Positions 1 to 34,003 of a stretch of DNA of 64,000 nucleotides are shown here, piece after piece; within the stretch, counting starts at the first letter, position 1, and every line of letters starts with the position of its first letter. A program made the translations under genes and the position numbers. The DNA lies in IMG/VR virus record IMGVR_UViG_3300012007_000011, positions 155 to 64,154 of that record. One strand, written 5' to 3'. The DNA comes from a virus. Its lineage: Duplodnaviria; Heunggongvirae; Uroviricota; Caudoviricetes. The notes under the pieces are model-generated. The model was not told the origin of the DNA. It made no database searches and worked only from the letters and a program-made list of their open reading frames with translations.

Positions 1-179
1 AAAGTCCGAATAATCATTGTGATTTTGAAAAAGTCTCAAATATTTCTTCATTTTAACTTTAATTTTGTTTAAACAATTATTTTTATCTACAATATAAATA
101 TTGCAATTTTTCTTTAAAAAACATTTGGTAGTTTAATTTTTTTGCACTATCTTTGTAAAAGAACAAGTGAAAGTATAGT

Positions 180-515
180 ATGGCAACAGAATATGAAGGT
201 TTAGAAACGGTCAGTTCATTTTTAGATAAACATCAAGAATTAAGAGATGATATAGTTAATTTGTGGCACATTGAGAAAATATTAACCAACGTACAACTCA
301 GATATCTTTACCTTGTATCATTAATCAGTTCTGACAATATATACGATTTTGAGACTGCTGAAAAGGCAATGGAAAAGATAACTTTTCTCAAACGAAACCT
401 ACATTATCTTAATTTGGATGATGATGTTTTAAAAGAGGTGAAAAGATATATAAACAAAGGTATAAGAATCATTAATAAGGAAATCAAGGAGTATCAAGAT
501 GAAGTTAGAGATTAA
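180..515 (+). CDS. hypothetical protein (111 aa)
   Basis: Long ORF, first in a + strand gene run; 3' end overlaps the next gene. Confidence 0.4.
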   Translation: MATEYEGLETVSSFLDKHQELRDDIVNLWHIEKILTNVQLRYLYLVSLISSDNIYDFETAEKAMEKITFLKRNLHYLNLDDDVLKEVKRYINKGIRIINKEIKEYQDEVRD

Positions 516-954
516 TAACATTCCGTCAAAAAGTAAAAATGTAACGGAAAAAGATAGGGAGATTATAAACCGTGCATTATTTTCATATCAGATTGTATTG
601 GGTCAATATGAGAAATATACAGATGAAATGAAACAAAAGGATTTGGAAAGACTTGCAAAGCAAAATAACCAAAATCCGCTTGATACATTGAATCCGTTTA
701 ATGTTGACCTTACTGAAGAGAAAACATATGAACCAACGTTTGAAGATACAAAGACGTTTGTATATTCCTCTTGGGCAGAAGCAATTGCAAATGTCAAAAC
801 ACCACGTATATGTGATGGCGCAAAGAAAAAAGGTATCAGAAGACAAGCGTTTAGGGACGTACAAAACGGTAAATATCTTACAAAAAAAGTGAGAGACGTT
901 ATGAATGATTTCATAACAAGACTATCAGTTGGTAAAACAGAAAATGAAAAATAA
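499..954 (+). CDS. hypothetical protein (151 aa)
   Basis: ORF coupled to the upstream gene; no recognisable motif. Confidence 0.4.
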   Translation: MKLEINNIPSKSKNVTEKDREIINRALFSYQIVLGQYEKYTDEMKQKDLERLAKQNNQNPLDTLNPFNVDLTEEKTYEPTFEDTKTFVYSSWAEAIANVKTPRICDGAKKKGIRRQAFRDVQNGKYLTKKVRDVMNDFITRLSVGKTENEK

Positions 955-987
955 ATTTATGTTAAATTTTAAAACGTTTTAAAAATT

Positions 988-1464
988 ATGAGAACATTAC
1001 AAGTAACTGGCCACATTGTGGCTGATGCAGAGAAGAAACTTAGCAAAAGCGGTAAGGAATATCTTACATTCAGAATTGCAAACAATGAGTTTAATGACGA
1101 AAAGGGACAGGACGGAAAGCAAAAACCATATTGGATTAGCGTAACGTCACTTAATCAGAGACATTTCAGCATGACTCAGTATCTCACAAAGGGAAAACCC
1201 GTAATTGTCGTAGGTGATTATAGTGACAGAATTTATCAGAACAGAGAAGGAAATTGCGAGATTTCACGTGACATCCTTGCAAATGCTATCTATTTCCTTC
1301 CTGGTAGCGGAGAGAATGGAAACAGTTCTTCAACACCGAAGACAACAGAAACACCATCAGTTCAGACAAAGATGGAAACACCAAAGCCCACAACAGCAGA
1401 AATTAAAGTGCCACCTGTAACAAGTGCTGTAAACAATAGTGACGATGACGATTTGCCATTCTAA
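988..1464 (+). CDS. ssb: single-stranded DNA-binding protein
   Basis: OB-fold-like N-terminal region, Gly/Ser/Pro/Thr-rich linker and acidic C-terminal tail DDDDLPF (SSB tail consensus DDDIPF). Confidence 0.7.
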   Translation: MRTLQVTGHIVADAEKKLSKSGKEYLTFRIANNEFNDEKGQDGKQKPYWISVTSLNQRHFSMTQYLTKGKPVIVVGDYSDRIYQNREGNCEISRDILANAIYFLPGSGENGNSSSTPKTTETPSVQTKMETPKPTTAEIKVPPVTSAVNNSDDDDLPF

Positions 1465-1485
1465 TAGACACATAATGAAATATAA

Positions 1486-1520
1486 AAGGTGATAAACATT
1501 TAATTATCACCTTTTTATTT
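1486..1520. terminator. bidirectional rho-independent terminator
   Basis: AAGGTGATAA..loop..TTATCACCTT hairpin flanked by an A-run and a T-run, between convergent genes. Confidence 0.6.
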
Positions 1521-1526
1521 TGTATT

Positions 1527-2005
1527 TTATTTACCGTTCCATATATAATATGTTTGATAAGTCACATCTTCATTATTAATATTGAAAGTAATTGTAATTA
1601 CCCAATTAGTTGTTTTAGAAATAGTTGATGATAAATTACAGTTCCAGTTAATACCGTCTTCGCTTGTTGCTGATGCAGATTCCTTTAATTCTCCTGGTCC
1701 TAACATATTATCATTTTCATCATATTGTGGATAATGAATACTAATAATTGGATTATTAGCATTTACTGCACCGAGCATTGTCATAGTAAAAGGATTGTCA
1801 AAGAATGTAGTAGAATTACCGGTAATAAAAGGTACATTATAACCGTTTATTTGTGTAATTTTTTGTACCCAAGGATTGTAGTGTACCTCATTCTCAGTGA
1901 TACAGTGTGATACATTAGGTGTTATAAATGGGGTATCTCCCCCCCCCCCCCAATAAACGTTTCGTATTGGGTGTGTTCGTTAAAAAGTTTTAAATAATTT
2001 GCCAT
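1527..2005 (-). CDS. poly-G-interrupted adhesin-like gene (locus A), out of frame in this sequence; conserved 26-aa N-terminal module MANYLKLFNEHTQYETFIGGGG then a stop
   Basis: ATG at 2005 (- strand) opens a frame that runs into a G13 tract (C13 on + strand, 1939..1951) and stops at 1922..1924. The downstream 85-aa ORF (1527..1784) lies in the frame reached by adding 1 G (or removing 2). Paralogous to 11033..11619. Confidence 0.55.
1876..2005 (-). repeat. ~130-bp conserved 5' module shared with 11490..11619
   Basis: About 80-85% nucleotide identity from the ATG through the poly-G tract and ~80 bp beyond; similarity ends where the C-terminal domains diverge. Confidence 0.8.
1939..1951 (-). 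repeat. homopolymeric G13 tract (C13 on + strand) inside the coding sequence
   Basis: Counted directly; encodes the Gly run of FIGGGG; run length is 1 mod 3, which is the OFF state. Confidence 0.9.
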
Positions 2006-2071
2006 TATGTGTTTTTCTATATGAAATTAATTTTATCTTTTTCTATATAAATATCTGAATTTATTTTGAAA

Positions 2072-2095
2072 TTTGGGTGAAATGCACTATATTTG
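2072..2095 (+). promoter_or_regulatory. Bacteroidetes-type promoter (-7 TATATTTG at 2088..2095)
   Basis: TAnnTTTG motif ~35 bp upstream of the ATG at 2132; the nearest upstream TTTG (2072..2075) is only 12 bp away, so the -33 spacing is atypical. Confidence 0.4.
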
Positions 2096-2131
2096 CAACA
2101 AAGAATAACATAATATTTTTTAAATTGATAT

Positions 2132-2740
2132 ATGTTTAAACATAAATGTTATATAAGGAAAAATAATGAATTTCTCCGTGAAACATTAAAGAAATTGGGT
2201 TATAGTGAGTTTGCCCCCAATGATAAAGATACAATAATTGCCACTTTTGACGGACATGATACAAATTATTTTACGACAATAGATAAAGAAAGTATCAATA
2301 ATTTGGGTAATATGTTTATTGATTGCGGTACTTCTGAAACTTTATTCCTTGGTATTGCTTCAATTACGGATGAACATGATAAGTTTCAGTTTTTCACAAC
2401 ATTAGCCGATAGACATTGGTATAATTTGGGAACATATAGTCCAAAGGGTAGTCTTGAATTTTGCATGGTTACGGACAGACATATGGGACAACACCCATTG
2501 TTTGACAATATGACCGTGCCTGCAAAGAAATCAACCATTGAAGAACTTATGGCGAATTTCAAGGACAAGGAAGAGGACACTGAATTTTACAGCAAGATAC
2601 CAAATGAACGATGGAAAAAAGACATATATGACTTTGAATACTATCCACTTACAGAAGAGGAAAAGAAAGAGATAAATGAACTTTTAACCAAAGATGAAAA
2701 CATTGAATGTATATTCAGTTCAGCAAGTACTGAAGATTAA
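2132..2740 (+). CDS. hypothetical protein (202 aa)
   Basis: ORF downstream of the 2072..2095 promoter. Confidence 0.5.
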   Translation: MFKHKCYIRKNNEFLRETLKKLGYSEFAPNDKDTIIATFDGHDTNYFTTIDKESINNLGNMFIDCGTSETLFLGIASITDEHDKFQFFTTLADRHWYNLGTYSPKGSLEFCMVTDRHMGQHPLFDNMTVPAKKSTIEELMANFKDKEEDTEFYSKIPNERWKKDIYDFEYYPLTEEEKKEINELLTKDENIECIFSSASTED

Positions 2741-2814
2741 CTATTTTTAACATTATTTTCTTGGTTTATATAAAAAAATATTATTACTTTTGCAAAGTAA
2801 AATAGAGACAAAAT

Positions 2815-3057
2815 ATGCAGAAGAGGAAAATTGTAAAAGTAACTTATAAAAATGGCAAAGTTGACTATAAGGTAAAAAAGAGAATTTTTCCGTTTATTTG
2901 GATAACGGATTCCTATGACTATTGGTATGGTCCTGGTATTTGTGAAGTCGTATGTAGACATATGACACTGAAACAGGCGGAAAACTACATGGAATGCATT
3001 AGGAAAAAGGAAGATGAGCGGAAAGGTTCAAAAATAATAGAGGAAACTGATTTGTAA
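2815..3057 (+). CDS. hypothetical protein (80 aa)
   Basis: ORF after a TTTGCAAAG promoter-like motif at ~2795. Confidence 0.4.
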   Translation: MQKRKIVKVTYKNGKVDYKVKKRIFPFIWITDSYDYWYGPGICEVVCRHMTLKQAENYMECIRKKEDERKGSKIIEETDL

Positions 3058-3058
3058 T

Positions 3059-3604
3059 ATGGCAAAGATACATTATATCATAGGTGATGCAACACTTCCT
3101 ATTGAGACAGAAGCAGAGAACAGACTAATAGTTCATTGTTGCAATACGCTTGGTGCTTGGGGTGCGGGTTTTGTTGTTCCTCTTGGCAGACGTTATCCAT
3201 TGGCAAAAGAAAAGTATAAGAAGTTCATTGAGGAAAATAAGGGTAAATCCATTTTGGGTGAAGTGAACGAAGTACCTGTTGGGGAACATCTGTATGTTGA
3301 AAACCTTATTGGTCAGAGTTTTCTTTATAAGAAGCCAAATGGTGAAATACCTTGTAATTATATTGCAATTGAAACGGGTTTTCTCAACATAATAAGAAAA
3401 TGGTTTTCATATAACTCAACGATACACAAGGATAAGCAAAACTTTTCAATTCATATGCCACGTATAGGTTGTGGTCTTGCTGGTGGTGATTGGAAAACAA
3501 TTGAAGAAATTATATATAGAACATTCATTGATATTGCCGATGTGGATGTATATGTGTATGATTTAAAGGAACAAAAAGATACCATTTATGATAACAGAGG
3601 ATAA
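3059..3604 (+). CDS. Macro-domain protein (ADP-ribose binding/hydrolase fold)
   Basis: IIGDATLPIETEAENRLIVHCCNTLGAWGAGFV matches the macro-domain core GDIT..DAIVNAAN..L..GGGV; the later GCGLAGG motif matches; 181 aa is the right size. Confidence 0.5.
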   Translation: MAKIHYIIGDATLPIETEAENRLIVHCCNTLGAWGAGFVVPLGRRYPLAKEKYKKFIEENKGKSILGEVNEVPVGEHLYVENLIGQSFLYKKPNGEIPCNYIAIETGFLNIIRKWFSYNSTIHKDKQNFSIHMPRIGCGLAGGDWKTIEEIIYRTFIDIADVDVYVYDLKEQKDTIYDNRG

Positions 3605-3857
3605 GATAAAGGATATAATTCTAACAATGATTGAGAACAACATGTTGGATAGTACACGTATCTTTGACAAAGAATATGTCTTGGAGAGAGTTAATTCATA
3701 TATTAAATCAGCCAACATGGTACGTTCAATGATGAACATGCCACTATTATAAAAAACACAAAAAATATGAAGTTTAAGAAGGCAATGTATATTTTCATAC
3801 TTTTTCTGTTATTGTAATATTTATAATAAAAAGAAATAATATTTTAACATTTAAAGT

Positions 3858-5000
3858 ATGGCAAAAAAATTAACAACTGAAGAGTTTGTACAAAGAGCGA
3901 GAAAGGTACATGGTAATAAATACGATTATTCGAAAGTGGAGTACTTAAATAATAGGACAAAGGTATGTATAATTTGTCCCGAACATGGAGAGTTTTGGCA
4001 AACACCTGATAGTCATATGTCAGGGAATAAATGCCCAAAGTGTTCTGGAACCAAGAAATTAACAACAGAAGAATTTATAGAACAAGCAAGAAAGATTCAT
4101 GGAAATAAATATGATTATTCAAAAGTTGAATATATTAACAATCATAGCAAAGTATGCATCATATGTCCAGAACATGGAGAGTTTTGGCAAACACCAATAA
4201 ACCATTGTTCAAAAAATAATCATAATGGATGTCCAATATGTGCAAAAACAATAATTGGTAATAAATTAAGAAAAAATAATTCATGTTTTATTGAAAAAGC
4301 AAGAGAAGTACATGGTGATAAATATGATTATTCAAAGGTCGAATATATAAATAACAGAACAAAGGTTTGTATAATTTGTCCTAAACATGGAGAGTTTTGG
4401 CAAACACCTGTCAATCATTTAAAAGGTCATAATTGCCCTAAATGTATTGGAAGGGGTGCATATAAATTAACAACAGAAGAGTTTATTGAAAAAGCAAAAC
4501 AAATACATGGTGATAAATATGACTACTCAAAGGTCAAATATGTAAATGCAAAAACCAAAGTTTGTATAATCTGTCCGGAACATGGAGAGTTTTGGCAAAC
4601 ACCAACCAGTCATATTGATGGAAAATGTGGATGTCCAGATTGTAATAAATTATTCAATGAAAAGAAAATAGGCGTTTTTCTAAATGAAAATGGAATTAGA
4701 TATATAAAACAAAAAACATTTAAATGGTTAGGTAAATTAAGGTTGGATTATTATTTAGTAGATTATAATATAGCAATCGAATATCAAGGCGAACAACATT
4801 TTCACTCAGTAAAATATTTTGGTGGTAATAAAAGATTTATTGATAGAATAGAGAGAGATAAAAGAAAAAAAGAATTGTGTGATAAAAATAATGTAAAAAT
4901 ATTATATGTATCGTTTTATAAAAAACCAACATATGATGTTATAAATAATTTTAAAGATTTGTTATATGAAATTCAAAGAAATATTTACAGAAAATTATAG
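3858..5000 (+). CDS. homing-endonuclease-like protein: 4 tandem zinc-ribbon modules plus a Vsr/PD-(D/E)XK-like nuclease C-terminus
   Basis: Four ~48-aa repeats of KYDYSKVEY.NN.TKVCIICPEHGEFWQTP..H..G..CP.C; the C-terminus LDYYLVDYNIAIEYQGEQHF resembles the Vsr/DUF559 nuclease core. Paralogous to 33001..33996. Confidence 0.6.
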   Translation: MAKKLTTEEFVQRARKVHGNKYDYSKVEYLNNRTKVCIICPEHGEFWQTPDSHMSGNKCPKCSGTKKLTTEEFIEQARKIHGNKYDYSKVEYINNHSKVCIICPEHGEFWQTPINHCSKNNHNGCPICAKTIIGNKLRKNNSCFIEKAREVHGDKYDYSKVEYINNRTKVCIICPKHGEFWQTPVNHLKGHNCPKCIGRGAYKLTTEEFIEKAKQIHGDKYDYSKVKYVNAKTKVCIICPEHGEFWQTPTSHIDGKCGCPDCNKLFNEKKIGVFLNENGIRYIKQKTFKWLGKLRLDYYLVDYNIAIEYQGEQHFHSVKYFGGNKRFIDRIERDKRKKELCDKNNVKILYVSFYKKPTYDVINNFKDLLYEIQRNIYRKL

Positions 5001-6375
5001 CGTTAATTGGGATTTCCTATTAACAATATCGCCATTTTCAAAAATGGTTAATTTAGAACAAAACAAGGAGTGGCATAAGGAAGATTGTTGGAAACATACA
5101 GTACTGGTTACACAAGAAATGGAAAAATTACTTAAAAGAAATCTTATTGAGAGAGGTTCTGAGAATTGGGTTATGTGTATGGCTGCTGCCTTGTGTCACG
5201 ATTTGGGAAAGGCTGATACAACCAAATGGTCTGAGGAAAAAAATGATTGGACAACAAAGAATCATGGTGTTGTCGGTGAGAGGATTACACGTCATCTTTT
5301 CTATGATGAAAACATTGTTTTAAGGGAAAAGGTATGTTATATGGTACGTCACCATATGACACTTCATCATGTATATGACAAACCAGAGGAAACAAATAAA
5401 AGGTTGATAAAATTATCACATGGTATTGTTGAAATGAGATTTATGATTTTATTGAACATTGCAGATTCGTTAGGCTCATACAATGATATAGAAACTGAAG
5501 ATAGTATTTATGACAAAGAGATGAAACTTATTAACGATGTAAGTTGTCTGCGTTGTTATCAGAAACCTTATTCTTTTATTGATAAGTCGCAACTGATTAG
5601 GAATTTCATTGACTATACTGGTGAAGTTATAAACGATAGAAATGACTTTTGTGTTTATATTCTTTGTGGTTTTCCTGGTTGTGGTAAAAGTACGTATTAT
5701 AATATGTTTCTTAATTCAAAACCTATTATATCAAGAGATATAATTCGTGGTGAGTTAGGTATTGACGGTGCAACCACAACCAACGACAAAAAAGTTGTTG
5801 GTACAAGGGAAGAGGAAGATAAAGTATCTGAAATTTTTAATAAGAAAATGATTGAATATTGTGAAAATAAGGAAAGTTTTGTTCTTGACAATACTAATCT
5901 TAAATATCAATATCGTAAAGATTATCTGTTAAAAATAATGAAATATAATCCTAAAGTGAAGATTATATATATTGAAGCACCGAATTACATTAAGGACTGT
6001 ATTGACAGAAGAAAGGGTGAGATACCGAAGAGAGTCTATGACAGAATGGAGAATAATTTTGATTTTCCACAATTGTATGAATGTGATGAGTTAACAATTG
6101 TTAAACAAGTGACAATAGAACAAGACAATGTATTTGTGTTTAAAGGCGATTTTACACCTGATTTGATATGTAATACTAATACCGTTAATGGGCGTGATTA
6201 TATATCAAAAGTAAAAGTACTAAATGATTTGTACATAACAAGAGGCGCAATGATATTGGATGGCTATGAATGTTATGACAGTTGTGTCAAATATATGGAT
6301 GAATTAATCAGCACATATAAGAACATGTTTGACTATACCGAACTGTTTGGTGAAATACCCTTAAAAAATGATTAA
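4966..6375 (+). CDS. HD-phosphohydrolase fused to a T4-Pnk-like polynucleotide 5'-kinase
   Basis: N-terminus has H..HD (HTVLV...ALCHDLGKADT) plus further His clusters. C-terminus has Walker A GFPGCGKST, IISRDIIR, and VLDNTNL matching T4 Pnk GCPGSGKST...ISDTNLNPERR. The true start may be the ATG at 5044. Confidence 0.6.
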   Translation: MKFKEIFTENYSVNWDFLLTISPFSKMVNLEQNKEWHKEDCWKHTVLVTQEMEKLLKRNLIERGSENWVMCMAAALCHDLGKADTTKWSEEKNDWTTKNHGVVGERITRHLFYDENIVLREKVCYMVRHHMTLHHVYDKPEETNKRLIKLSHGIVEMRFMILLNIADSLGSYNDIETEDSIYDKEMKLINDVSCLRCYQKPYSFIDKSQLIRNFIDYTGEVINDRNDFCVYILCGFPGCGKSTYYNMFLNSKPIISRDIIRGELGIDGATTTNDKKVVGTREEEDKVSEIFNKKMIEYCENKESFVLDNTNLKYQYRKDYLLKIMKYNPKVKIIYIEAPNYIKDCIDRRKGEIPKRVYDRMENNFDFPQLYECDELTIVKQVTIEQDNVFVFKGDFTPDLICNTNTVNGRDYISKVKVLNDLYITRGAMILDGYECYDSCVKYMDELISTYKNMFDYTELFGEIPLKND

Positions 6376-10195: not shown

Positions 10196-11017
10196 ATGCA
10201 AATTAATAACAATTGTGAGATTTATAATGGTGACTGCATAGAAGTAATGCAGGAAATAATAGATAAAGGTGTTAAGGTGGATTTGACTGTTACAAGTCCA
10301 CCTTATGATAACCTTAGAAGTTATGAAAATGAAGTGACGTGGGATTTTGAGAAATTTAAGGATGTGGCTAACAAACTATATGAAATAACTGCTGATGGTG
10401 GTGTTGTTATATGGGTTGTAAATGACCAAGTAAGAAATGGTTCTGAGACAGGTACTTCATTTAAACAAGCACTTTATTTCATGGAAATTGGTTTCAGATT
10501 GCATGATACGATGATTTTTCAAAAAGCAAACTATATTCCTTTGACACATAACAGATATGAACAGTCATTTGAATATATGTTTTGTTTCTCAAAAGGTAAA
10601 CCAAAGACATTTAATCCCATTATGATTCCTTGTAAAAACGCAGGAAAGGTTGAAAGTTATGGTAATGAAAGACGTTCATTGTTAGACAAGAAGCAAGCGA
10701 TGAGAGCACCTGAGGGTAAAACTTTTATGAAGACAAAAGACACCAAGTATCACCCTAATATTTTTACATATACACTTGGTGGTCAAAAAACAGGACACCC
10801 TGCTGTGTTTCCTGACAAGTTGGCAGAAGACCAAATAATAACTTGGTCAAATGAAAATGATTTGGTTTTTGACCCATTTATGGGAAGTGGAACAACTGGT
10901 AAAATGGCAATAATAAATAATAGAAGATTTATTGGTGTTGAACTTGTAAAAGACTATTATGATATTTCAGTCAGAAGAATTGAAAATGAAACACAAATAG
11001 AAAAAGCAGCCTTTTGA
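10196..11017 (+). CDS. DNA methyltransferase (beta-class N6A/N4C; motif IV SPPY before motif I)
   Basis: TVTSPPYDN (motif IV) and VFDPFMGSGTTG (motif I) near the C-terminus; paralogous to 20184..20984. Confidence 0.7.
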   Translation: MQINNNCEIYNGDCIEVMQEIIDKGVKVDLTVTSPPYDNLRSYENEVTWDFEKFKDVANKLYEITADGGVVIWVVNDQVRNGSETGTSFKQALYFMEIGFRLHDTMIFQKANYIPLTHNRYEQSFEYMFCFSKGKPKTFNPIMIPCKNAGKVESYGNERRSLLDKKQAMRAPEGKTFMKTKDTKYHPNIFTYTLGGQKTGHPAVFPDKLAEDQIITWSNENDLVFDPFMGSGTTGKMAIINNRRFIGVELVKDYYDISVRRIENETQIEKAAF

Positions 11018-11031
11018 GACTGCTTTTTTAT
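11005..11031. terminator. weak bidirectional terminator
   Basis: AGCAG..CTGCT stem followed by a T-run between convergent genes; imperfect. Confidence 0.3.
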
Positions 11032-11032
11032 T

Positions 11033-11619
11033 TTATTTTTCCCATCTAAATGCTTGATTATTATAAGAATATATTGTATCTACAATATCACTATTCAAAG
11101 AATTGTTATTACAGTCAGCAAACGCATAGTCAGCAATTGTTGTAATAGAATCTGGTATATTAATTGTTTCTAAATTATCACAAAATCCGAAAGCATAACT
11201 TTCAATAGTGGTGACAGCATTATCAAGTGTAACTGATACAAATGCACAGTCACTAAAAGCCTTTCGGCCGATGACTGTGGGGTTTTTTAATGTGTATCTA
11301 ACAGTATGTTCACCAACAGACAACTGATATTCACCATACACTCTATCAAGGTCAGCAATTGACACCTCAACACCATCAACCTCAATTTTTTTAAATAATG
11401 AAGTAGGCGATACATTGCCATATAATTTTGTTGGAGAAGTTGCATCCTCTACATTAAATATAGCAATAACAGGTCCGGGTAGAACAATTGGGTTATAATG
11501 TACATCATTTTCCTCAATGCAATGTGACACGTTAGGTTTTATGAATGGGGTGTCTCCCCCCCCCCAATAAACGTTTCGTATTGGGTATGGTTTTCAAAAA
11601 GTTTTAAATATTTAGGCAT
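11033..11619 (-). CDS. poly-G-interrupted BspA-type leucine-rich-repeat adhesin-like gene (locus B), out of frame in this sequence
   Basis: ATG at 11619 gives MPKYLKLFENHTQYETFIGGG, then a G10 tract (C10 at 11556..11565), then a stop. Adding 1 G joins it to the 165-aa ORF 11033..11530. That ORF carries LRR units (IGRKAFSDCAFVSVTL / IESYAFGFCDNLETINIPDSITTIADYAFADC). Confidence 0.55.
11490..11619 (-). repeat. ~130-bp conserved 5' module shared with 1876..2005
   Basis: See locus A. Confidence 0.8.
11556..11565 (-). repeat. homopolymeric G10 tract (C10 on + strand) inside the coding sequence
   Basis: Counted directly; same phase (1 mod 3) as the locus A tract. Confidence 0.9.
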
Positions 11620-14119: not shown

Positions 14120-14901
14120 ACATTAAAAGAATACAAGAATTATATACATATAATCCGTCAAAGGGTATTATAAAGGAAGCCTATGGTGATGTAGATACAA
14201 GTAATTATATTTGTATTGGAGAAGTACCATATGACCCTTGGTTGAATGGTACTAAAAAACTGTATATAATGGTAAGTCCACAAAAGATAATGAAATATGG
14301 ACGAGAAGAATATGACGTAAGATATACAAAAAATAGTGATGGTAGTGGCGGTCAGATAGAAAGCATTCCAACAAATGTAAAGCATAATGCAGTAATCTAT
14401 CCGGAACATCAAGATGATGAATATGGTGAGATTTTTCTTGGTAAAAGAAAAGATAAGGATTTGTTAATTCAACAACATAAAGAATTTGAATCCAAACTCT
14501 TTAAATCCGGTGACAACATTATATTACATCACAATAGTTCTTTTAAGGTGAATGATGGTTTTGTCAAAAAAGGAAAGCCAAATGGATGGTCAAATAATTC
14601 AGATAAAGGAATATACTTTTGGGGAAGTAGAACAGGCGGAAAAGACCCATCTAATGGAGGATTGTATACATATTATTGCTTAATTAAAAAAGGAGATTTA
14701 TACGACCTTGAAACCAATGAAGAAAGACTTAGTTTGGAACAAGCAATGAAAAAATATCCCTATGTCGGCCAAAATTGGCAAGATGAGGAAAATGTAATTG
14801 TGGTTAATACTTATCAGCCCACACCAATTTGGTGCATTCTTGATACACAAACAGGTAAATGGTATGATAAGGATTGGAATGAGATACAAAAACCTTTTTA
14901 A
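14116..14901 (+). CDS. hypothetical protein (~261 aa)
   Basis: ATGA overlap start. Confidence 0.4.
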   Translation: MNIKRIQELYTYNPSKGIIKEAYGDVDTSNYICIGEVPYDPWLNGTKKLYIMVSPQKIMKYGREEYDVRYTKNSDGSGGQIESIPTNVKHNAVIYPEHQDDEYGEIFLGKRKDKDLLIQQHKEFESKLFKSGDNIILHHNSSFKVNDGFVKKGKPNGWSNNSDKGIYFWGSRTGGKDPSNGGLYTYYCLIKKGDLYDLETNEERLSLEQAMKKYPYVGQNWQDEENVIVVNTYQPTPIWCILDTQTGKWYDKDWNEIQKPF

Positions 14902-14974
14902 TATATTTTGTTATCTGGGTTTTTTGCATTATATTTGTTCACAGACAATAAAGTTTGTGAACATTTATTTTTTA

Positions 14975-15754
14975 GTGGAAATTTTTAAATTTGATATTAA
15001 CAAATGTATAGAGTGTAAGAAAATATTAAACAGCAATGCGAAATCAAGAACAATATATAAGACTAAATGTTCTTATAGCAGATTTATAGGTAATTGCACT
15101 AATCTTTATTACAAGTTAAAACCAACCAATTATTTTGATTTTTATGAGAAGGAATTGAAATATGCTGAAGAAAATCATGACTTACCAATTGAGGAAAGGG
15201 GTTTGACATATGAGGAATTTTATATGTTAGCACACAAATATAAAGTGCTTCTTGAAGACTGTACGACATTGAAATATGATATCAGCGTTTACTTCTATTC
15301 ATTGGTTTGTCATGCGATTGTTGAGACATTTGTCGGTCAAAAGAAAGAAGAAACAATAATGAAATACATATCAGACAAAGGTTTTACAGTAAATAAGGTA
15401 GAAGGTAAAAAGGATGCAAAATATGGAGTCGATATTGAAGTGTTTGGTAAAGGACAACATTTCTATTTACAAGTAAAACCTATTTCATTTTTTAAATCTG
15501 AATATCCCGATACACATGAAGATAGAATTGATGCATGTAGAAAAAGAGAAGAAGTATTGAAATTAGAGGGGCTTGACACATATTATATAATATACGATTT
15601 GGATTGGGAAACATCACAGATTAAATGGGTTAATAATAAAAACAGTGGTATTTTATTCAAAATAAACGACTTGTTTGACTATGATAAAGATAATATTAAA
15701 TCCACACTTATTAGGCATCAGTTACCAACAGAAGAAATAATAATAGGTTTTTAG
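14975..15754 (+). CDS. hypothetical protein with a Cys-cluster (zinc-ribbon-like) N-terminal region; start uncertain
   Basis: The frame stays open from a TATATTTG promoter at ~14930 and has no ATG before 15224. A GTG start at 14957 or 14975 is possible; the ORF-track start at 14798 lies inside the upstream gene. Confidence 0.3.
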   Translation: MEIFKFDINKCIECKKILNSNAKSRTIYKTKCSYSRFIGNCTNLYYKLKPTNYFDFYEKELKYAEENHDLPIEERGLTYEEFYMLAHKYKVLLEDCTTLKYDISVYFYSLVCHAIVETFVGQKKEETIMKYISDKGFTVNKVEGKKDAKYGVDIEVFGKGQHFYLQVKPISFFKSEYPDTHEDRIDACRKREEVLKLEGLDTYYIIYDLDWETSQIKWVNNKNSGILFKINDLFDYDKDNIKSTLIRHQLPTEEIIIGF

Positions 15755-16234: not shown

Positions 16235-16537
16235 ATGGTAGAACCGATTAGTCCAAGTGACGTTAAAAAGTTTATCCCCGATTTTATAATTGAAACTGTG
16301 AATAAACTTATTGTGGAAAAGTGGGATGGTGATAAAGCAATCATCTTACAGGATGATATTATGGATATAGTTTCAAGCGATGACCCAGACATTGATAAAC
16401 CTTCAAGACGAGAGGTTTTTGATAAAGGATGGTTGGACTTTGAACCACTTTATAGAAAAAAGGGTTGGGATGTTGAATATGACAAACCCGGATATAATGA
16501 ATTTTATAAAGCACGTTTTATTTTTAAAAAGAAATAG
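16235..16537 (+). CDS. hypothetical protein (100 aa)
   Basis: ORF. Confidence 0.4.
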   Translation: MVEPISPSDVKKFIPDFIIETVNKLIVEKWDGDKAIILQDDIMDIVSSDDPDIDKPSRREVFDKGWLDFEPLYRKKGWDVEYDKPGYNEFYKARFIFKKK

Positions 16538-16543
16538 TATTTT

Positions 16544-18055
16544 ATGAGAACAGTTTATTTAAAGAATTTTAGAAAGGGATTTGCTACAAACAGTAGTTCA
16601 ACTCATTCTGTCATATACCGTAATAAAGAGGATTTATTCAAAGATTTGGATATTTTTGAATTAAACTATTATGATAGATTTGACAATACGATTGCGGCTT
16701 CAAAAGAAGCAAAAATCAAGTATGTTGCAGCCAATATTATGTGGCATGACAAATTATATGAAATAATGTCGTTGTATTATCCACAGATGAATGAATACAA
16801 AGAACTTATCAAAGAAACCAAAAATAAAGAAACATTATATGGTGATGATGAAAAGTTTGGAATGTATGCAAGGGGTAGACTGTATTTCGGTAATAGTAAA
16901 TACTTGGAGGCAAGTATTGATTATCTTCGTAATGTTATAGATAATGACGATATAATCATAGTTGGTGGTTCTGATGAAACTGATTTTGTTTGGGAAACCA
17001 TTGAAGGACATAAAACATTACCGCAACCAGATGAAATAAATGACTACAATGATAACTGTAATATTGTTAAAAATGGAAATTATTGGGTTGGTTTTGGCTA
17101 TAATGGAAAAGTGAGATTTTCTAATAGTAACGATAAATGTATTCCGAGTTATCCGGAACTGATTGACTTGAAAATTACAAATCAGTGTGACCACGGATGT
17201 AATTTTTGCTACATGGATTCGAATATGCAAGGAAAACATGCAGATATTAATTTTCTTAAAAAAATCATTAGTAGATTGTCTTCAAATGACAGTAATACCT
17301 ATGACACACGTGTTGAATTTTCAATCGGTGGCGGTAATGTACTTTTGTATCCACATCTTGAAGAGTTGTTTAGTTTCATGAAGGAGAAAAGACATATCAT
17401 TAATACAACAATTAATGTTAAGGATTGTCAGAAAATCTTAAATGACTCTAACTTACTTAAAGTTTTTAAAAAATATGTCAATGGAATTGGTGTATCAGTA
17501 AATTCTGATGAAAACATTAACGATGTTAAAGAATTAAAGGAAAAATTGAATGACACAAGCAATTATCCTTATTACACTTATAAAGAGATTGTAATACATA
17601 TGATACCAGAACTTCTTGGCAGGGAAAAAACCAAAAATCTTTTGAAAAAACTTTATGATAATAATTTATATGACATACTTTTCCTTGGTTATAAGACAAA
17701 TGGACGTGGTGTGACACAAAAGCACAATAGGCTAACAAATGAAGATTTAAGTTATATTCTTGAAGATGCTTATAGTATAAATGTTGACACAACATTTGCG
17801 AATACATACAAAGATTGGCTGCAAAACAATTTTGATATTAAATATAGTATCACGTTTGATGAAGGCGAATATAGTATGTATATTGATGGCGTTACAGAAA
17901 ATGCTTACAAATCTTCTTATCAACTTGACAAACCATATAATCTGACTTGTACAACTATGAATTGGCAAGCAAAAAATAAAGAATGGTTCGAAGTAATAGA
18001 TGCATTCAAAAACATAAGAAAAGACAATGGTTTTGAAAATATAGAAAAAGAATAA
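16544..18055 (+). CDS. radical-SAM protein (503 aa) with a ~200-aa N-terminal extension
   Basis: CDHGCNFCY is a CX3CX2C radical-SAM cluster motif; Gly-rich IGGGNVLLYP SAM-binding motif. Confidence 0.6.
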   Translation: MRTVYLKNFRKGFATNSSSTHSVIYRNKEDLFKDLDIFELNYYDRFDNTIAASKEAKIKYVAANIMWHDKLYEIMSLYYPQMNEYKELIKETKNKETLYGDDEKFGMYARGRLYFGNSKYLEASIDYLRNVIDNDDIIIVGGSDETDFVWETIEGHKTLPQPDEINDYNDNCNIVKNGNYWVGFGYNGKVRFSNSNDKCIPSYPELIDLKITNQCDHGCNFCYMDSNMQGKHADINFLKKIISRLSSNDSNTYDTRVEFSIGGGNVLLYPHLEELFSFMKEKRHIINTTINVKDCQKILNDSNLLKVFKKYVNGIGVSVNSDENINDVKELKEKLNDTSNYPYYTYKEIVIHMIPELLGREKTKNLLKKLYDNNLYDILFLGYKTNGRGVTQKHNRLTNEDLSYILEDAYSINVDTTFANTYKDWLQNNFDIKYSITFDEGEYSMYIDGVTENAYKSSYQLDKPYNLTCTTMNWQAKNKEWFEVIDAFKNIRKDNGFENIEKE

Positions 18056-32986: not shown

Positions 32987-33021
32987 AAGATGGTGGACTA
33001 TTAGTGTATTCCACCATCTTT
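32987..33021. terminator. bidirectional terminator hairpin overlapping the 3' end of the - strand gene
   Basis: AAAGATGGTGGA..loop..TCCACCATCTTT. Confidence 0.4.
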
Positions 33022-33996
33022 CTTGTATTTAATGTCATATAACATTTCGTTTAAATCTGCATAATATGTGTGTTTATTTTTAAAAGTAGTTGGTACATTT
33101 TGGTCAGTGAAATAAAAAACATCAATACCATGTTCTTTGCATTGTTTAAATTTTAATTCATCTCGTTCTATTAATTCGTTAAATGTAAATATTTTTGTTT
33201 CTGTTGAAATGTTTGAAGAAAATGACGTTGCTTGAAAATGTTGTATTCCTTGACATTCAATTGCACTGTTATATTCCGGTAAATAAAAATCTAATTTCAT
33301 ATTAGTTTTATTTTTTAACCATTTAAACGTCTTTTCTTCAATAAAATATATTTTATTCTCTGACAAAAAATTAGATAAATATTTTTCAAGTTTTGATTTT
33401 TGACACTTTGGACAACCATTTCCTTGTAAATGTTTGTCTGGTGTTTGCCAAAACTCACCATGTTCTGGACATATGATACATACCTTTGTTTTGTTATTAA
33501 TATAATTTACGTTAGAATAATCATACAGGTTGTTATGTATATATTTTGCTTTCTCTATAAAAGTATTATTGTTTGAGGCTAATTTTTGTTTGTATTTTAT
33601 TTTTCCACATTCAGGACATCCGCAACCTCTGATATGTGAATTTGCTTCTTGCCAAAATTCACCATGTTCTGGACATATGATACAAACCTTTTTAGTGTTA
33701 TCAATATAGATTGTCTTAGAATAATCGTATTTGTTATTATGCACCCTTTGTGCTTCTTTAATAAAATCTTCATTTGTTTTGGTTAAACGCTTTTTATGGT
33801 TTTCGTATTTACATTTTCTACATCCTTTACCACTTAAATGGCAATTTGGCGTTTGCCAAAACTCTCCGTGTTCGGGACATATGATGCACACCTTTGTTTT
33901 ATTGTTAACATATTCCACCTTTGAATAATCATACTTGTCACCATGTACTTTTCTTGCATGTTCTATAAATTCCTCTGTTGTTACTCTTTGTTGCAT
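33001..33996 (-). CDS. homing-endonuclease-like protein: 3 zinc-ribbon modules plus a Vsr/PD-(D/E)XK-like C-terminus (paralogue of 3858..5000)
   Basis: The same repeat signature (YDYSKVEY.NN.TKVCIICPEHGEFWQ..H..G.GC..C) three times, and a C-terminal LDFYLPEYNSAIECQGIQHF. Start taken at the ATG at 33996 (the track start is a GTG at 34002). Confidence 0.6.
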   Translation of the reverse strand: MQQRVTTEEFIEHARKVHGDKYDYSKVEYVNNKTKVCIICPEHGEFWQTPNCHLSGKGCRKCKYENHKKRLTKTNEDFIKEAQRVHNNKYDYSKTIYIDNTKKVCIICPEHGEFWQEANSHIRGCGCPECGKIKYKQKLASNNNTFIEKAKYIHNNLYDYSNVNYINNKTKVCIICPEHGEFWQTPDKHLQGNGCPKCQKSKLEKYLSNFLSENKIYFIEEKTFKWLKNKTNMKLDFYLPEYNSAIECQGIQHFQATSFSSNISTETKIFTFNELIERDELKFKQCKEHGIDVFYFTDQNVPTTFKNKHTYYADLNEMLYDIKYKKDGGIH

Positions 33997-34003
33997 AATC
34001 ACA

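Follow-up and report, generated by a model that had tools for sequence, protein, structure and literature searches.

Can a run of 13 G residues that breaks the reading frame of a phage gene near its start act as an ON/OFF switch? In the window, by which we mean the whole 64,000-nt stretch of DNA analyzed here, codon 18 of a minus-strand ORF (ATG 2005..2003; locus A) is followed directly by this run. The original prediction held that the ATG at 2005 leads into a 13-nt G tract and that the frame stops after 5 codons, and each of these elements was reproduced from the sequence. The ATG opens MANYLKLFNEHTQYETFI and then G13, frame 0 continues as GGGGEIPHL, and its stop codon (1924-1922) lies 5 codons past the last GGG. 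The -1 frame contains no stop from the interior of the tract until 1527 (GGGGDTPF...IWNGK, then a stop). Gain of one G, or loss of two, fuses the two parts into a product of 159 aa, the length that had been estimated. A paralog in the same window, locus B, likewise stops 5 codons after its tract, and the addition of one G yields a fused product of 195 aa. Both tracts occupy the same codon position, after codon 18, and the wrong frames of both loci terminate within 5-8 codons. Two independent assemblies, ERZ28658117 and ERZ964371, both give G13 for locus A and G10 for locus B, although they appear to share one sample and the same reads, and consensus lengths of G10-G13 from short-read assemblies may be off by one. 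The features of these loci, and the remnant of a third paralog at the window edge, are listed in Table 1.

Table 1. Positions of the features at locus A, locus B and the third paralog, in window coordinates.
Feature	Position	Strand	Remark
Upstream motif TATTTATATAG, family-associated	2043..2053	-	38 nt before the locus A ATG; promoter-like by inference
Conserved N-terminal module coding region, locus A	1871..2005	-	start codon to HYNP
Frame-0 ORF of locus A as assembled	1922..2005	-	27 aa, MANYLKLFNEHTQYETFIGGGGEIPHL, then TAA stop
Poly-G tract G13, locus A (C13 as displayed)	1939..1951	-	in the N-module linker; OFF, downstream ORF in -1 frame
Downstream frame, locus A	1527..1949	-	remaining N-module DTPFITPNVSHCITENEVHYNP and ~110-aa beta-sandwich C-terminal domain
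Exchangeable C-terminal cassette, locus A	1488..1870	-	unrelated to the same-slot cassettes in L002 (LRR type) and L001
Terminator-like hairpin, bidirectional	1484..1515	.	separates locus A from the convergent SSB gene
Frame-0 ORF of locus B as assembled	11539..11619	-	ATG 11619; MPKYLKLFENHTQYETFIGGGETPHS, then stop
Poly-G tract G10, locus B	11556..11565	-	same OFF state as locus A, needs +1 G
Downstream frame, locus B	11033..11563	-	remaining N-module, beta-rich domain, BspA-type LRR
Terminator-like hairpin 3' of locus B	11001..11028	-	
Third paralog, tract-less, start only	1..51	-	MKKYLRLFQNHNDYSDF..., cut by the window edge

We asked whether such tracts could have arisen by chance. At the GC content of the window (31.7%), G/C runs of at least 13 nt and at least 10 nt are expected 1e-5 and 0.002 times, respectively, under an iid model, and apart from the G10 and G13 tracts no G/C run in the 64 kb exceeds 5 nt. 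Moreover, GGG is the rarest glycine codon in the window ORFs (49 of 886, 5.5%), and the other Gly-Gly-Gly tripeptides in the window (n = 5) contain no GGG codon at all. Run-length statistics and the rarity of GGG together argue that the tracts are not chance occurrences. The homopolymer is also unnecessary for the protein, since the linkers of tract-less relatives have no Gly or encode it mostly by GGT or GGA, and one relative (L074) encodes the same GGGG linker by an interrupted run. A role as a G-quadruplex was considered and set aside, since a standard three-tetrad quadruplex is beyond the reach of a single G13.

An N-terminal module of ~45 aa, M.KYLKLF..HTQYETFI-(Gly)n-DTPFI.PNVSHCI.EN.VHYNP (the N-module), is common to loci A and B, while their C-terminal parts are unrelated. 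Among 5.8 billion metagenomic proteins we found 52 relatives, all of which combine the N-module with diverse C-termini and none of which carries a source-given name. A tblastn search of 50,697 GenBank phage records with the N-module gave no match, and megablast of window positions 1-6000 against GenBank phages returned only a 109-nt, chance-like match to a Klebsiella jumbo phage. By these searches, loci A and B belong to a metagenome-only family. Its C-terminal types include a BspA-type LRR, a 110-aa beta-rich type (as in locus A), a 'VDLGLPSG...SVRGVVG' type, and others. We also considered whether the type 'VDLGLPSGTKWATMNVGA' might be a Fibrobacter FISUMP domain; this assignment found no support in Pfam or NCBIfam and was dropped, and the evidence for a diversity-generating retroelement (DGR), given below, is a better description of the domain.

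The fused product of locus B matches Pfam PF13306 (LRR_5) with 62.9 bits (cut-off 27.7, E = 3.5e-17). Its AlphaFold model has a pLDDT of ~90 over residues 50-195, and its best-probability Foldseek matches are gut-bacterial LRR structures (4h09, 4oju, 6mlx), with weak E values of 0.02-0.08. The C-terminal domain of locus A is a beta-sandwich in a moderately confident AlphaFold model (pLDDT 69.8); Foldseek searches of PDB and BFVD with this model found no match at E < 0.01, only generic Ig-like beta-sandwiches, and searches of Pfam and PHROGs found no match for locus A. The description of the switched gene as adhesin-like thus holds for the relatives and for locus B with its BspA-type LRR, whereas for locus A, an unassigned beta-sandwich with no significant match in Pfam, PHROGs or Foldseek searches, the term is drawn from family context alone. 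The N-module itself was modeled with low confidence in both proteins (pLDDT 39-67), a result that would fit a segment folding only on a partner.

Next, we examined the state of the reading frame across the family. A frame-blind DNA motif downstream of the tract (PNVS[HY]C...VHYNP) was scanned in IMG/VR, JGI metagenomes and GTDB genomes and yielded 122 unique loci; exact and semi-degenerate DNA scans of IMG/VR for the tract with its flanks produced no match. Tract lengths and frame states were all taken from consensus assemblies. When the longest G run in the linker was 5 nt or shorter, all 71 loci were in frame and none was out of frame, and the same was true of the four loci with runs of 7-8 nt. 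By contrast, among loci with runs of at least 9 nt, only nine were in frame and 20 were out of frame (offset 1: nine; offset 2: 11). The difference in frame state between runs of at most 5 nt and those of at least 9 nt is highly significant (Fisher p = 2e-14), and the ON (in-frame) fraction among the latter is indistinguishable from 1/3. Because no out-of-frame locus was found without a long run, the frame breaks in this family are specifically attributable to the tract, and the three frame states are filled as a random walk in length predicts. Pure G runs are found in at least eight diverged flank contexts, and lengths of 6-13 occur within the same contexts; for example, the context 'att-Gn-agataccccatt' is found with G9, 10, 11, 12 and 13, and 'gct-Gn-catgctcagg' with G8-12. 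One motif match, in a GTDB MAG assigned to Christensenellaceae (L137, 390-436), lies beside G8-T-G20-C12, which resembles a sequencing or assembly artefact, and it was left out of the tallies.

Four tract-less JGI loci (L060 +2690, L120 +1148, L128 +6662 and L129 -360) have a TAA at the same linker codon, which changes caaaatTTAattttg to caaaatTAAattttg. They keep 194-362 intact codons past this TAA, and ON orthologues exist (L010, L021). A nonsense allele spread by gene conversion, repeated selection for the OFF state, or read-through could account for the shared stop.

We then compared tract lengths on fixed genetic backgrounds. In related phages, the syntenic position of locus A (flanked by the SSB gene and a 202-aa gene) is occupied by an N-module with an LRR-type C-terminus. 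The tract of this LRR-type gene is G9, G10, G11 or G12 in 21 contigs drawn from a variety of samples and studies, and 19 of the 21 are identical over the surrounding 924 bp, the other two having an apparent upstream indel. By cluster counts, about 45 contigs have G9, 17 have G10, three have G11 and ~6 have G12, and some of the G9 contigs exceed 300 kb. Contigs with G10, G11 and G12 show no mismatches to one another over 2.3-5.3 kb, and the G9 lineage is ~1% diverged from the G10-12 background. By this comparison, the poly-G tract is by far the fastest-changing site. Since tract length also tracks lineage, it is heritable, which argues against pure sequencing noise. Orthologues of locus A itself were found with G11 (in frame), G9, G9 and G13.

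The genes nevertheless look maintained when they are out of frame. Past the motif, each of the 19 complete OFF loci still has 77-658 intact codons, with a median of 306 compared to 277 in ON loci. Downstream dN/dS is 0.18-0.37 between locus A orthologues in different states, albeit from small counts, and several paralogs are kept per genome. The ON state accounts for ~4% of contigs in the LRR-type lineage and for about one third family-wide; weak or absent selection on the DNA frame would fit this lack of ON enrichment equally well.

Collectively, these results suggest that loci A and B are probably phase-variable (contingency) genes switched by slipped-strand mispairing. They contain a slippable tract within the ORF (~7 nt or more) where a change of one nucleotide toggles between full-length and truncated products; length is polymorphic on near-identical genomes; and the ORF remains intact and under purifying selection while the tract stays pure. 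The contingency-type reading in the original prediction is supported by the range of lengths (6-13) in the same contexts, by the 9 ON and 20 OFF loci with long runs against 71 and none with short ones, by the G10, G11 and G12 alleles on identical backgrounds, and by the intact and constrained OFF ORFs. On this reading, each gene specifies a small modular protein made up of the conserved ~45-aa N-module, presumably a docking or adaptor segment, and an exchangeable C-terminal binding domain, and the pure G homopolymer encodes a flexible linker inside the N-module. Slipped-strand mispairing during replication of the phage DNA would alter the length of the tract and move the gene among three frame states: an ON state (G8, G11 or G14 in the flank context of these loci) and two OFF states, each stopping shortly after the tract. 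Provided that switching is reversible, as we infer, a phage population would always hold minorities that make or do not make each family member, a form of bet-hedging. Any consequence of the switch for ligand binding or host range is likewise conjectural.

Alternatively, recoding might give full-length protein from all DNA states, either by slippage of RNA polymerase or on the ribosome by re-pairing of tRNA-Gly on GGG GGG. Leaky decoding would explain why the DNA frame looks unselected, with each frame state at about one third and yet a conserved downstream ORF. In addition, loci A and B both need the same +1 G, and a homopolymer permits perfect re-pairing in either direction, as is established for slippery sites. 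Still, we consider recoding unlikely. The direction of the required shift is not conserved in the relatives, where offset 1, offset 2 and in-frame alleles all occur; the 80-100 nt after the tract have no significant RNA structure (fold z-scores 0.24-0.80); and the short in-frame tracts (G7-8), together with tract-less and interrupted relatives, indicate that the protein can do without the tract. Efficient transcriptional slippage is, furthermore, documented mainly for A/T runs. Programmed -1 frameshifting or programmed slippage in one direction is specifically unsupported, since the loci with runs of at least 9 nt divide 9/9/11 among the frame states and no stimulatory structure follows the tract.

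It is also quite improbable that the true tracts are G14 and G11 in ordinary single ORFs and that the homopolymer was under-called by one in the window. An under-call is conceivable in this particular assembly because both tracts are exactly one G short and the two agreeing assemblies seem to stem from shared reads, and long G runs are error-prone on short-read platforms. It does not account for the family-wide pattern: out-of-frame lengths predominate in many samples, studies and assemblers, G9 and G12 are not 'one short', the G9 length follows its diverged lineage, and no locus that lacks a long run is out of frame. We give very little credence to the view that the genes are decaying pseudogenes of a dispensable family, with the tracts as the first sites of inactivating frameshifts. 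The low ON fraction in the best-sampled lineage and the tract-less sub-lineage with an in-frame TAA in the same linker would both fit decay. On the other hand, secondary lesions are absent, with long ORFs in 19 of 19 complete OFF loci, dN/dS is well below one (0.18-0.37), the tracts remain pure in the diverged contexts despite the disfavored GGG codon, and multiple paralogs are retained per genome. Phase variation by slipped-strand mispairing is therefore the reading that we carry forward.

Locus A shows a further form of variation. The window and the related locus L002 are 95-97% identical on either side of locus A, and their homology breaks exactly from the end of the N-module (HYNP, 1871) to the 3' end of the gene (1487), corresponding to L002 10092-10628. 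As read from this alignment, one C-terminal cassette has taken the place of another at a syntenic locus, and the N-module with its tract is the conserved socket. Genes for IS605-type TnpB (OrfB_IS605 / Cas12f1-like_TNB) lie beside the syntenic locus in L001 (11139-13160) and L002 (11282-14312) and are not there in the window; the L001 insertion also has a resolvase gene. Elsewhere in the window, the ORF at 18475-19497 matches a transposase PHROG.

The third paralog is the target of a DGR in close relatives. In L002, the target gene (14776-15663) contains a VR at 15425-15612, the TR lies at 16420-16607, and a gene for an RVT_1 reverse transcriptase (16663-17838) adjoins the TR. All 23 of the 23 mismatches between VR and TR in L002 are at TR adenines. 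The TR is identical across L002-L005, which come from four samples, and the four VRs all differ. From these comparisons, the DGR of the third paralog looks active in the relatives. A blastn search of all fetched loci and the window with the L002 TR gave no match in the window, where the third paralog is cut by the edge; a 96.5% relative that extends past this edge (L148) ends in the first 45 nt of the VR (5543-5587). DGR targets are ligand-binding proteins. The presence of a DGR on the third paralog accordingly strengthens, without proving, the idea that the family consists of binding proteins under diversifying pressure.

The target gene also holds a poly-G run, 34 nt beyond the 3' end of the VR and five codons short of the stop (L002 15646-15657, G12, with CCCC on both sides). 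The same run, of at least G11, is seen in L006 (15647-15657), where the locus ends inside it, and the site is shared by L003-L005. This run looks more like a cis element of the DGR (a GC-rich IMH or hairpin) than like a translational switch.

These genes are carried by an uncultured gut and rumen jumbo phage, about 360 kb in size. Contigs with family members reach 353-368 kb, one of them being an IMG/VR viral genome, and the gene content of the window is typical of a jumbo phage (SSB, RNA ligase, radical-SAM enzymes, homing endonucleases, methyltransferases and SAM synthetase). Its host is probably a member of the Bacteroidales. This is suggested by three lines of evidence: family members are found in rumen and gut metagenomes; MAGs with family members were binned as Prevotellaceae, Paludibacteraceae and Bacteroidaceae; and 19 of the 91 window ORFs have the Bacteroidetes -7 promoter box, TAnnTTTG, in the 100 nt preceding them, about twice the chance expectation, with the matches clustered at -25 to -73.

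The paralogs also seem to carry their own expression signals. T[AT]TTTATA is found 25-55 nt upstream of the start codon in 49 of 99 family loci, and TATTTATATWG occurs only twice in the window (2043-2053 and 90-100, both on the minus strand), each time before a paralog. T[AT]TTTATA may act as a phage-specific promoter and move together with the N-module. With a terminator-like hairpin 3' of locus A and of locus B, each paralog looks like its own transcription unit, antisense to its neighbors.

Homopolymer slippage is a classic route to phase variation in bacteria. The phage examples so far come mainly from Campylobacter phages and, very recently, T-even phages. The former (Fletchervirus) offer the closest parallel, ahead of bacterial contingency loci and then of the T2/T4 loci: their receptor-binding protein genes carry hypermutable polyG tracts (Sorensen et al., Cell Rep 2021, as reported in PMC10579305, PMC12823448 and PMC10877375). 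To the extent described in those reports, the two systems share an intragenic G run, ON/OFF control of the frame by its length, several tract genes per genome, and a proposed diversity within the population. Unlike the Campylobacter-phage proteins, the family described here is unrelated, its N-module having no tblastn match in the GenBank phage records; it comes from an uncultured jumbo phage whose host is probably a member of the Bacteroidales; and the tract lies in the linker of a shared N-module with exchangeable cassettes. Receptor binding by a virion protein is putative for this family, with indirect support from the BspA-type LRR and from the DGR-targeted paralogs. Bacterial contingency loci are known from Campylobacter, Neisseria and Haemophilus, where poly-G/C tracts lie in the 5' coding regions of genes for surface structures (PMC8355987, PMC5084427). 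Loci A and B resemble these in having a tract of 9-13 nt near the 5' end of the ORF that is pure against the codon bias and gives three frame states. They differ in being virus-borne, presumably replicated by the phage's own polymerase, and in that the switching is read from sequences alone.

In T2/T4 and other coliphages, contingency loci with reversible frameshifts have been described and proposed to serve bet-hedging (Gomez, Barrick & Waters, bioRxiv 10.1101/2025.10.21.683753). Repeats encoded by the phage itself and a proposed bet-hedging role are common to both systems. The T2/T4 loci are mostly short runs of at least 6 nt, spread over many gene classes and under-represented in infection proteins; by contrast, the G runs described here are long, are the sole such runs in 64 kb, and are confined to one family and one codon position. 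Programmed frameshift and slippage sites (the tail assembly chaperone G/GT, dnaX and IS elements) likewise place a slippery homopolymer between overlapping frames. Here, however, the direction of the shift is not conserved, no stimulatory structure is present, the upstream product amounts to just 27 aa, and relatives commonly have in-frame alleles. DGRs (BPP-1 Mtd) and invertible tail-fibre segments (Mu Gin, P1 Cin) also diversify binding proteins stochastically; unlike them, the poly-G tract turns whole proteins on or off and neither changes a binding site nor swaps a C-terminus. A literature search for homopolymeric phase variation in huge phages or megaphages found nothing relevant.

What sets the present case apart is the location of the tract, within the linker of an N-terminal adaptor common to several paralogs of one genome, in combination with cassette exchange and a DGR. 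A possible but speculative extension, which we advance tentatively, is that the N-module serves as a common docking adaptor that places a dozen or so binding domains (LRR, beta-sandwich and DGR-diversified lectin-like) on one site of the virion, with independent slippage at each paralog, cassette exchange and the DGR on one member forming a three-layer system. If this were true, each virion would carry a different combination of adhesins, and the virus would have a 'phasotype' repertoire on a par with those of Campylobacter or Neisseria cells; a repertoire of this kind has not yet been described for gut or rumen phages. More generally, the loci would extend phase variation to the abundant, uncultured jumbo phages that infect Bacteroidales of gut and rumen, and would show slippage acting on a whole modular gene family that also uses cassette exchange and a DGR. 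There are practical consequences as well. Gene callers split or truncate these genes, and consensus assemblies give an arbitrary frame state. Predictions of host range or adhesion should hence treat the N-module family as stochastically expressed.

We also noted a few further features in the relatives and in the window. In L037 (+6042) and L044 (+4961), an in-frame TAG stands where relatives encode Gln (FT*T versus FTQT), and L044 has further in-frame stops downstream, which suggests TAG-to-Gln recoding in some of the phages with the N-module family. In the window, the plus-strand gene at 3858-5000 is homing-endonuclease-like and repeat-rich, with four copies of 'KLTTEEFIEKA..HG.KYDYSKVEY'. 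A second repeat-rich gene, at 33001-34002, matches PHROG HNH/homing endonuclease families and is the sole minus-strand gene in its neighborhood.
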